Part shown: piece by piece, positions 58,952-59,750 of the stretch | Layout: each line of letters starts with the position of its first letter | Numbering within the stretch: position 1 is the first letter of the stretch | Sequence record: PV611058 | DNA: 64,000 bases | Source of the DNA: Escherichia phage WPEC3 | Strand: one strand, 5' to 3' | Position numbers and translations under genes: made by a program | Notes under the pieces: generated by a model | Database searches by the model: none | Told to the model about the DNA's origin: nothing | Seen by the model: the letters and a program-made list of their open reading frames with translations, nothing else

Positions 58952-59750
58952 GTTTTAAACTACAGAATTGATTGAATTGAATTATGAAAGGAATTAATTA
59001 TTTTATAGTGAACTCATCTAACTCATTTCATTCGTTAGCTGAAGAATATTCGTTACTACGTAACTCATATTCATTTCTTATAATTAATTATAAAGAACTT
59101 TAAAAGATTTAATACTTGACGGGATTTGTTGAAGACATTTTCATCCCCCCGCAGGGGAATGAAGACAATAAAAAAGAGACAATTAAGTCTCTTAATTCTT
59201 GACGCTGATGGTTTCAGCATTTATTGTATTGCGAATTTCTTAAAATTCATTAAGAACGAAAGCGGGTTGCTCTGTTTCTCTCTATCGCAGTCATGTGCAA
59301 CGGTCGTCAGTCTTAATCATCCTGACACTCACCTGAAAGTCTATACAATCAAACTTCAGGCTGTTTATTAAATCACTTAATAAACTCCCTTAGCAAATCT
59401 GGTAAGGTGCGATCCTTATACATCTATCGAGGAACTCTCTGTATGCTTATCGGAGTTCTTTATTGAGCCGTGTCGCCGTGAGGGGTTCAAACTATGCCCA
59501 CATCTAACGGGTTTCTTCTGCTCATCGCACTGTTGAACTGCTCATCTGCCATCTACATTTTCGATAGGATCAGGTTCTAATTTATATGCATTTCTGCATT
59601 CAACAGGATTGTCATCACTACAATTAACATTATAGCACCAAATTCAAAAGTGTCTCACTATTATGATAAAAAATTTATAAAAAGTACATAATTCTTGAAC
59701 ATTGAAGTAACGCATAAATATTTTGATAAGAATTAGTTTAGTGGGGATTT

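Follow-up and report, generated by a model that had tools for sequence, protein, structure and literature searches.

A probable large structured RNA element shared by RaK2-like jumbo phages and integrase-bearing islands of Enterobacterales

Results

The stretch of DNA analysed here, referred to throughout as the window, comprises 64,000 nucleotides (nt) of Escherichia phage WPEC3 (sequence record PV611058), and the subject of this report is a gene-free interval at 58952-59750 that appears to contain a large structured RNA encoded on the minus strand. Sequence comparison identifies the source phage as an Asteriusvirus, a member of the 121Q/PBECO4 group within the RaK2-like jumbo myoviruses, whose genomes measure ~350 kb; the window matches the Escherichia phages vB_Ec-M-J, EC.P1 and BF17 of this group with 99.5-99.8% identity over 8 kb. 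To the left of the interval lie, all on the plus strand, a baseplate-hub gene (57799-58704), a 69-aa open reading frame (ORF; 58704-58913) and the intrinsic terminator of these upstream genes (58919-58948), which was found by a terminator scan, carries a terminator annotation in phage G17 and sits just outside the left boundary of the interval. To the right, the endonuclease VII gene (59751-60242, plus strand) is divergent from the predicted promoter of the RNA. Since the genes on both sides are on the strand opposite to the RNA, the window copy would form its own transcription unit and is not an obvious leader. The hairpin of the baseplate-hub operon at 58919-58948 is flanked by an A-run and, opposite it, a T-run, and minus-strand transcripts leaving the RNA gene may therefore also stop there.

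A first-pass annotation had flagged this interval as free of ORFs, elevated in G+C and rich in repeats and hairpins, and every repeat and hairpin that it quoted could be located: the AT-rich direct repeat gaattgattgaattgaatt (58966-58984), three aactcat motifs (59011-17, 59020-26 and 59062-68), two ctgctcatc blocks (59518-26 and 59538-46), and the hairpins tcatcccc...ggggaatga (59142-59164), aagagac/gtctctt (59174-59193, also picked up by the terminator scan, on the minus strand) and ggaactc...gagttcc (59432-38 with 59453-59). The rise in G+C is genuine, if modest (0.40-0.41 at 59200-59650 versus 0.29-0.35 on either side). What that annotation had not seen is that the RNA is on the minus strand, that the element is present in multiple copies, and that its boundaries are at about 59010-59660. 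The flagged interval holds more than one feature, namely a promoter, the RNA, an A+T-rich spacer and a hairpin module at the 3′ end. The AT-rich gaattga repeat is kept only within Asteriusvirus and lies outside the signature of the family, and the aactcat motifs are parts of hairpins in the 3′ module.

The structured core of the element (59117-59622, minus strand), which runs from the predicted transcription start to a conserved ...AAAUCCCGUCAAG end, is the best-conserved DNA of its neighbourhood. It is 97.0% identical to phage 121Q, whereas the flanking genes are 80-90% identical, and the same excess of core over flanks holds against phages UE-S1 and A4. Across genera, the core is found at 70-74% identity in Munch, 7t3, GAP32, CBB, Serratia BF and Xanthomonas XbC2, as well as in Erwinia and Yersinia phages, and in a more diverged form in RaK2 and K64-1. 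Copies were gathered from IMG/VR, metagenomes and GTDB genomes, first by scanning for motifs and then with nhmmer, whose match in the window spans 59101-59619. This yielded 75 unique full-length copies, spread over jumbo phages, metagenomic sequences and chromosomes of bacteria, and 51 representatives with less than 95% identity to one another (mean identity 64%) were used for structural analysis.

The absence of a convincing ORF, also claimed at first pass, is upheld by this collection. The ORFs overlapping the interval are short (39, 49 and 81 aa) and none is conserved, and no protein is encoded at this position in related phages. Across 73 copies there is no conserved ORF, no codon periodicity of substitutions was seen, and most indels have lengths that would shift a reading frame (1174 and 328, versus 202 whose length is divisible by three).

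A curated structure of 81 pairs in 19 helices, including a pseudoknot, was placed on the alignment of the 51 representatives, having been built from predictions on the same sequences; RNAalifold gives ~15-19 helices in either orientation. Of the 4075 cells, 97.1% are paired, compared with 78.4% in shuffled alignments and 37-47% when the register is shifted by one to three columns. Both sides have changed in 55 of the 81 pairs (shuffles, 40.8; shifted register, 23-35), compensatory cells number 746 (198 and 65-114, respectively), and the covariation score is 0.532 (0.18 and 0.07-0.10); none of 500 shuffles reached the observed values. Furthermore, in 42 sequences that had not been used to derive the first structure, its 84 pairs were kept largely as Watson-Crick pairs. 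The core of the window copy itself folds better than shuffled sequence, with z = -3.8 for the minus strand and -3.2 for the plus strand. The pattern is far beyond chance: this is the most conserved DNA of its locality, it folds better than shuffles, and its helices covary. The compensatory changes in 55 pairs show selection on a single-stranded fold, and together with the lack of a conserved ORF and a conserved promoter of its own (described below), the covariation among 51 divergent copies bears out the first-pass suggestion of a large structured RNA.

The predicted fold, whose parts are all on the minus strand, begins with a 5′ domain that is closed by a long-range helix (helix 1, 59599-59606 with 59530-59536) and encloses a variable hairpin (59586-90 with 59594-98) and an inner helix (59563-73 with 59546-53). 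In an alignment of 31 sequences, these three helices covary at 7/8, 5/5 and 7/10 pairs, respectively. The closing helix is clear in the better L-INS-i alignment and blurred in that of the 51 representatives, in which it nevertheless shows change on both sides at seven of its eight pairs. The central helices (59520-24 with 59464-68, and 59507-10 with 59476-79) are followed by the ggaactc/gagttcc hairpin (helix 5, 59454-58 with 59432-36), all five pairs of which have changed on both sides; within this central group of helices 3-5, helix 3 is 100% paired.

Further along, the loop (59343-49) of a hairpin at 59351-62 with 59331-42 is predicted to pair with 59223-29, generating an H-type pseudoknot that spans 59223-59362 and in which strand 59223-29 stacks on the helix 59285-89 with 59230-34. 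The seven base pairs formed by the loop are 99.7% paired, have all changed on both sides and include no G-U pair. Within this span lies a near-invariant hairpin, GRGAGAAACAGRGCAACCCGCUUYC (59258-59282; GAGAGAAACAGAGCAACCCGCUUUC in the window), which includes invariant alignment columns, helices 16 and 17, both 100% paired, and a GCAA loop (59267-59270), probably of the GNRA type. The core also holds a conserved C-run/G-run hairpin, UCAUUCCCC ugc GGGGGGAUGA (59139-59164), which contains helix 19. The most conserved positions of the core are unpaired, and many unpaired nucleotides are invariant; a tertiary fold is suggested both by the pseudoknot and by the invariant hairpin with its GCAA loop.

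Some copies contain an additional module of 30 nt, a hairpin GGAUYURUA-CAA-UAURRAUCC followed by GUCCAAAAUUU, which sits in the loops of two helices in different copies (columns ~430-475 and ~610-645 of the alignment of 51 representatives) and is absent from the window copy. This module behaves like a mobile structural cassette.

The assignment to the minus strand draws on a conserved promoter, on a G-U bias in strand-symmetric sets of pairs, and on terminator-like hairpins of the minus strand. The promoter, which is of the sigma-70 type, consists of a -35-like box, TGAGACA (59651-59657, minus strand), and an extended -10 element, TGcTATAAT (59629-59637, minus strand), with a spacer of 16 nt from GAGACA to TATAAT, and transcription would thus start near 59622. 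In the family the layout is TG(A/G)(A/G)AC(A/G), 16-17 nt, TGnTATAAT. Among the 67 copies with enough flanking sequence, those of bacterial islands included, 62 have TGnTAnnnT upstream at a constant position, 55 of these with TATAAT, and 44 have the -35-like box. This box matches the TGAAACG 'divergent RpoD-like' promoter that was reported for phages CBB and GAP32 (PMC5259590). As for wobble pairs, the 50 pairs that covary from Watson-Crick to Watson-Crick, and are therefore neutral as to strand, hold 100 G-U cells when read on the minus strand versus 19 on the plus strand, and the pairs predicted on both strands hold 115 versus 15. All five pairs of helix 19 vary only from C-G to U-G (51 U-G cells), a wobble pattern that marks the minus strand. 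Two candidate promoters of the plus strand were rejected: TTGACG motifs, which lie within the transcript, and the 30-nt module described above, which in the RNA sense is a hairpin with a tail.

Two positions are candidates for the 3′ end. In the window a terminator-like hairpin, AAGAGAC uuaauu GUCUCUU, is followed by U6 (59168-59193, minus strand). Its stem covaries, but it is an optional feature: hairpin and U6 are absent from the 59-kb and 307-kb paralogues of genome OQ718158, and 33 of 63 copies have five or more consecutive U upstream of the C/G hairpin. After the core comes a poorly conserved A+T-rich spacer (59066-59116, minus strand; the mean A+T over the 50 nt that follow the core is 0.70 in 67 copies, versus 0.64 for the genome), and beyond it a 3′ module (59010-59065, minus strand) that contains the aactcat repeats and two hairpins, at 59052-64 and 59018-38. 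This module is 91-92% identical to 121Q, and inspection of flank alignments by eye indicates that its stems covary in both phage and island copies, while RNAalifold returned no clean consensus fold on what is a poor alignment. A loop motif of the module reads ACGAA(C/G)NAGUGA in other copies and GAAUGAAAUGA in the window, and some copies carry a further terminator-like hairpin with a U-run at its far end. The transcript is accordingly predicted to measure ~455 nt if it ends at U6 (59168), and ~610 nt if it includes the 3′ module (~59010).

Matches to the element occur in 71 of 50,697 phage records, all of them in the RaK2-like clade, and in none of 72,556 plasmid records. Most RaK2-like jumbo phages have four to five copies per genome at syntenic positions, and the orthologue of each paralogue is kept well above the rate of synonymous sites, variable hairpins included. 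A motif search of the whole genome OQ718158 located four copies, at 59, 112, 196 and 307 kb, all co-oriented and dispersed over 357 kb; no second copy was found inside the 64-kb window. The three further copies (~59.5, 112.4 and 307.5 kb) are in gaps of roughly 550-700 bp that are free of coding sequences. In the genome records inspected, gaps of ~550-840 bp at the element have been left empty or filled with spurious small ORFs.

Genomes outside Asteriusvirus were observed to have five copies, not four. In Eneladusvirus genomes, the copy closest to that of the window (Serratia phage BF, 258.8-259.3 kb) adjoins an ADP-ribosylglycohydrolase gene, a different context. A diverged variant from metagenomes keeps the 3′ half of the core and has an unrelated, G+C-richer 5′ half, with CGAAG in place of CGUCA motifs; as one locus of this variant keeps the order portal, structural protein, hub and then RNA, the variant would belong to a more distant lineage of jumbo phages. 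At 333-351 kb of OQ718158, outside the window, there are ~14 tandem paralogous minus-strand genes annotated as 'regulator of chromosome condensation' (RCC1-like).

GC skew in OQ718158 follows gene orientation and shows no change of sign at the copies, only a small step. It is 0.03-0.05 higher downstream than upstream at 59.5, 112.4 and 307.5 kb (windows of 5, 10 and 20 kb), and the three copies with such a step share the orientation of their neighbouring genes. The first-pass alternative of an origin with iterons finds no support here, as there is no sign change in skew and the direct repeats are unconserved outside the genus.

In addition to phages, full-length copies reside in bacterial chromosomes: those of Serratia fonticola GTA-SR07 (complete), Serratia sp. 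2723, Enterobacter chinensis, Silvania hatchlandensis, an Enterobacteriaceae isolate and two E. coli. Here the RNA occurs once per integrase-bearing island of ~11-15 kb, in Enterobacterales. Read in the orientation of the RNA, the islands comprise an integrase (a large serine or a tyrosine recombinase), the RNA, a cI-like S24 repressor on the opposite strand, an HTH_35 protein, a membrane protein of 286/327 aa, an LprI-like protein, an invertase, and a variable defence cargo that includes Kiwa, PLD (PLDc_2 with EcsC), an SMC-like protein (SMC_N with DUF6602) and PDC-M45A. The membrane protein gave no significant result and no known domain with PADLOC and NCBIfam. At all five loci that were reached through its homologues (51-100% identity), the RNA is upstream in the same orientation; the Serratia islands possess the RNA and have no membrane protein within 8 kb. 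None of the island proteins has a homologue in the phage genome, and because phage and islands share the RNA only, it appears to be a self-contained module. No recognisable replication or packaging genes were found in the RNA-carrying islands, which may be minimalist satellites. A neighbour-joining tree has the island copies nested among those of phages, at no fewer than two points.

Two details of the islands were noted in passing. In the island of E. coli LR-29-1, between ybaA and ffs, the RNA is in an unannotated gap of 1.4 kb, and the island also has a homologue of the membrane protein and the PADLOC candidate PDC-M45A (dual-OB, DUF488 and DUF4326 proteins). In Enterobacter-type islands a perfect palindrome, CCCTATAAATATC-GGTA-GATATTTATAGGG, stands ~60 nt upstream of the RNA promoter, on the integrase side, and could be an operator, a terminator or an arm of an attachment site.

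A search with Rfam 15 at gathering thresholds gave no match in the whole window, and ARAGORN detected no tRNA or tmRNA in it. A permissive Rfam scan of 58700-59900 produced only chance-level matches inside the element. Its sole match with E<0.01, to Arrc14, scores 36.6 bits against a gathering score of 99 and rests on the neighbouring terminator of the plus strand. The same permissive scan of an island copy gave nothing at E<=1. The families without a match include GOLLD, ROOL, OLE, group I and II introns, RNase P, tmRNA, 6S, hammerhead and RNAI. The covariance-model scan that had been proposed at first pass thus recovers no large non-coding RNA (ncRNA) family or self-splicing intron, and the element is therefore not one of the known ones. 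The literature searched contains no description of it either, so that this RNA family is absent from both Rfam 15 and that literature.

Discussion

The conservation, covariation and promoter described above make it very probable that the interval contains a structured, promoter-equipped, non-coding element whose fold is that of the minus strand. As to its role, the interpretation we favour, with confidence only somewhat better than even, is that of a free-standing gene for a large structured ncRNA that acts through its fold, most likely in trans. A fold acting in trans is preferred because the most conserved positions are unpaired, because the core combines a pseudoknot with a GNRA-type loop, and because the conservation of each paralogue goes beyond structural need. 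In such a scheme, host RNA polymerase would transcribe the RNA early in infection from ~59622, and the transcript would end at the hairpin with U6 (59168) or beyond the 3′ module (~59010). The RNA would work through its three-dimensional shape, most likely by scaffolding or partnering a protein or a nucleic acid, with the conserved core providing an activity common to all copies and the paralogue-specific peripheral hairpins conferring specificity.

A number of observations weigh against this interpretation. Action in trans is unspecific as a mechanism, and the literature searched holds no RNA-seq for any RaK2-like phage. The family profile, run with all filters off, does not match the region of ncRNA002 from phage PA5oct. 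With regard to the strand, both orientations fold with similar z-scores, the G-U counts on the first alignments were ambiguous, and G-U pairs are scarce, making up ~7.5% of the cells of the curated structure and ~4% of those in strictly covarying pairs. The 3′ end, moreover, is not fixed between its two candidates. Finally, the co-orientation and dispersal of the four copies over the genome, the want of replication genes in the islands, and the A+T-rich stretch and hairpins after the core would fit a cis-acting origin at least as well.

Such an origin, RNA-primed and present four to five times per genome, is the main alternative, and although unlikely it deserves serious consideration. The transcript would be a structured pre-primer that forms a persistent hybrid in the A+T-rich DNA after the core and primes the leading strand, the 3′ hairpins would load a helicase or primosome, and the islands would carry one such origin so that an infecting jumbo phage replicates, and possibly packages, them. 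The spread of four co-oriented copies over 357 kb agrees with this, as does the succession of a promoter, a structured RNA of ~500 nt, a G-run hairpin, 50 nt at 70% A+T and conserved hairpins. For comparison, the RNA II of ColE1 is ~550 nt long and T4 origins consist of a promoter and a downstream element; plasmids with T4 origins were reportedly replicated and packaged after T4 infection in the work of Kreuzer and Alberts in 1985-86. Islands that combine an integrase, a cI/cro-like switch and defence cargo with no recognisable replication or packaging genes would also suit it, absence from plasmids is expected if the phage replisome is needed, and the mobilisation of islands by jumbo or virulent phages has precedents (PMC12595487, PMC10803314). 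Yet T4-type origins require no conserved RNA fold, and a primer is not known to need invariant loops, a GNRA-type loop, a pseudoknot or conservation specific to each paralogue. The A+T content, at only 0.70 versus 0.64, rises ~500 nt away from the promoter. No conserved antisense unit resembling RNA I could be detected in the element, where plus-strand promoter-like matches fall in covarying or variable columns and Rfam RNAI has no match. The lack of a sign change in GC skew counts against an origin too, although in T4-like phages a GC-skew signal at origins is not expected. Less likely again is the fuller version of this explanation, a parasitism for which the element would be the cis-acting handle: satellite islands would have captured the RNA-primed origin of jumbo phages at least twice, and an infecting jumbo phage would amplify, and perhaps package, the islands.

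All other explanations rank below an RNA-primed origin, with likelihood falling from a leader resembling put and a defence antitoxin or decoy to a pure DNA site and, last, a coding region. A cis-acting leader RNA that modifies polymerase for processive antitermination into long gene blocks, in the manner of put, would account for a position immediately after a strong promoter, for the terminator-like hairpin inside or after the element, and for the orientation of three of the four loci along the long gene arrays that follow; RaK2-like phages, moreover, use host polymerase with phage sigma factors (annotation; PMC5259590). It is nonetheless improbable, as convergent genes and a terminator lie ahead of the window copy and of its orthologues in other genera, the island RNA converges on the cI-like gene, the blocks downstream mix early-type with late structural genes, and put RNAs are ~70 nt with two stem-loops against ~500 nt and 19 helices here. 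Hardly less improbable is a role in defence and counter-defence, whereby the island RNA would be a regulator or antitoxin of the membrane protein and the phage copies its mimics (similar to pseudo-ToxI) or else the islands would carry a decoy of an RNA essential to the phage. The constant placement of the RNA at all five membrane-protein loci, the presence of Kiwa, PLD and PDC-M45A in the islands and the nesting of island copies among phage copies at two or more places in the tree could be read in this way. Against it stand the Serratia islands, with their RNA and no membrane protein within 8 kb, a phage genome without a homologue of that protein, a fold of 500-600 nt that is far above known RNA antitoxins, and alignments in which no tandem-repeat organisation of the ToxI kind is visible. 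The phage copies are also far more diverse and keep syntenic positions across genera, and they therefore point to an old core function of the phage. A site in double-stranded DNA with no role for RNA, be it an iteron origin, a packaging site or an array of protein-binding sites, would explain the direct repeats and A+T-rich segments at the left end and the multiple copies. This very unlikely explanation is already largely refuted by the covariation of 55 pairs, and it is further opposed by the strand-specific wobble bias, by the loss of the direct repeats beyond the genus, and by a number of copies (four to five) unsuited to a packaging site in a genome with fixed terminal repeats of 21.5 kb. 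Least credible of all is that annotation has missed, or called inconsistently, one or more small proteins: ORFs of 39-81 aa do exist and several 'hypothetical proteins' have been called across the region in some GenBank records, but curated records leave it empty, and conserved reading frames, codon periodicity and predominantly in-frame indels are not what the copies display.

Only a small number of large, intricately folded RNAs of bacteria and phages are known, and every discovery so far has raised a fresh question. The comparative evidence for this RNA is unusually strong, and the RNA is carried by culturable phages of E. coli, Klebsiella and Salmonella that are considered for therapy (121Q, PBECO4 and phAPEC6). 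The records inspected show an annotation gap, in which the element is left blank or filled with spurious ORFs. Furthermore, an RNA common to jumbo phages and defence islands points to a hidden interaction between them, whether hijacking, mimicry or shared manipulation of the host. Were the element instead an origin, it would explain how genomes of 350 kb start to replicate, and if satellites share it, phages would have a type of origin not seen before, one dependent on an elaborate RNA fold. To our knowledge, no satellites of jumbo phages have been described in Enterobacterales, and the islands would in that case be the first such family.

Among known systems, the element appears by its sequence features to belong with the large ornate phage-associated ncRNAs, which are a kind rather than a homology family: it exceeds 400 nt, has many covarying helices and conserved unpaired nucleotides, and is carried by phages and mobile elements. 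Like GOLLD, ROOL and OLE, it is several hundred nt long, is carried by phages and integrated elements, and has a function that cannot be read from its context. It differs in that their covariance models do not match it, that its hosts are Enterobacterales and RaK2-like jumbo myoviruses, and that it has four to five diverged paralogues per genome. With ColE1 RNA II it shares a promoter, a structured RNA of ~500 nt with a G-run, and downstream hairpins, but it is not found on plasmids and has no sequence similarity to RNA II. The T4 origins oriF (uvsY) and oriG (gene 34) are likewise found in several copies in the genome of a related phage, each with a promoter and a downstream element. In T4, however, the unwinding element directly follows the promoter and there is no conserved RNA fold, whereas here the A+T-rich 50 nt come ~500 nt after the promoter, behind a conserved structure. 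The put RNA of HK022 is likewise a structured RNA that directly follows a promoter and precedes a terminator-like hairpin; the present element, in contrast, is ~7 times larger, and at least one of its copies has no co-directional genes to antiterminate. Lastly, in PA5oct, a phage that shares core genes with the RaK2-like clade, RNA-seq revealed transcription of four regions devoid of genes, ncRNA001-004 (236-619 nt, main coding strand; PMC7318152), which resemble the element in being gene-free stretches of such a genome.

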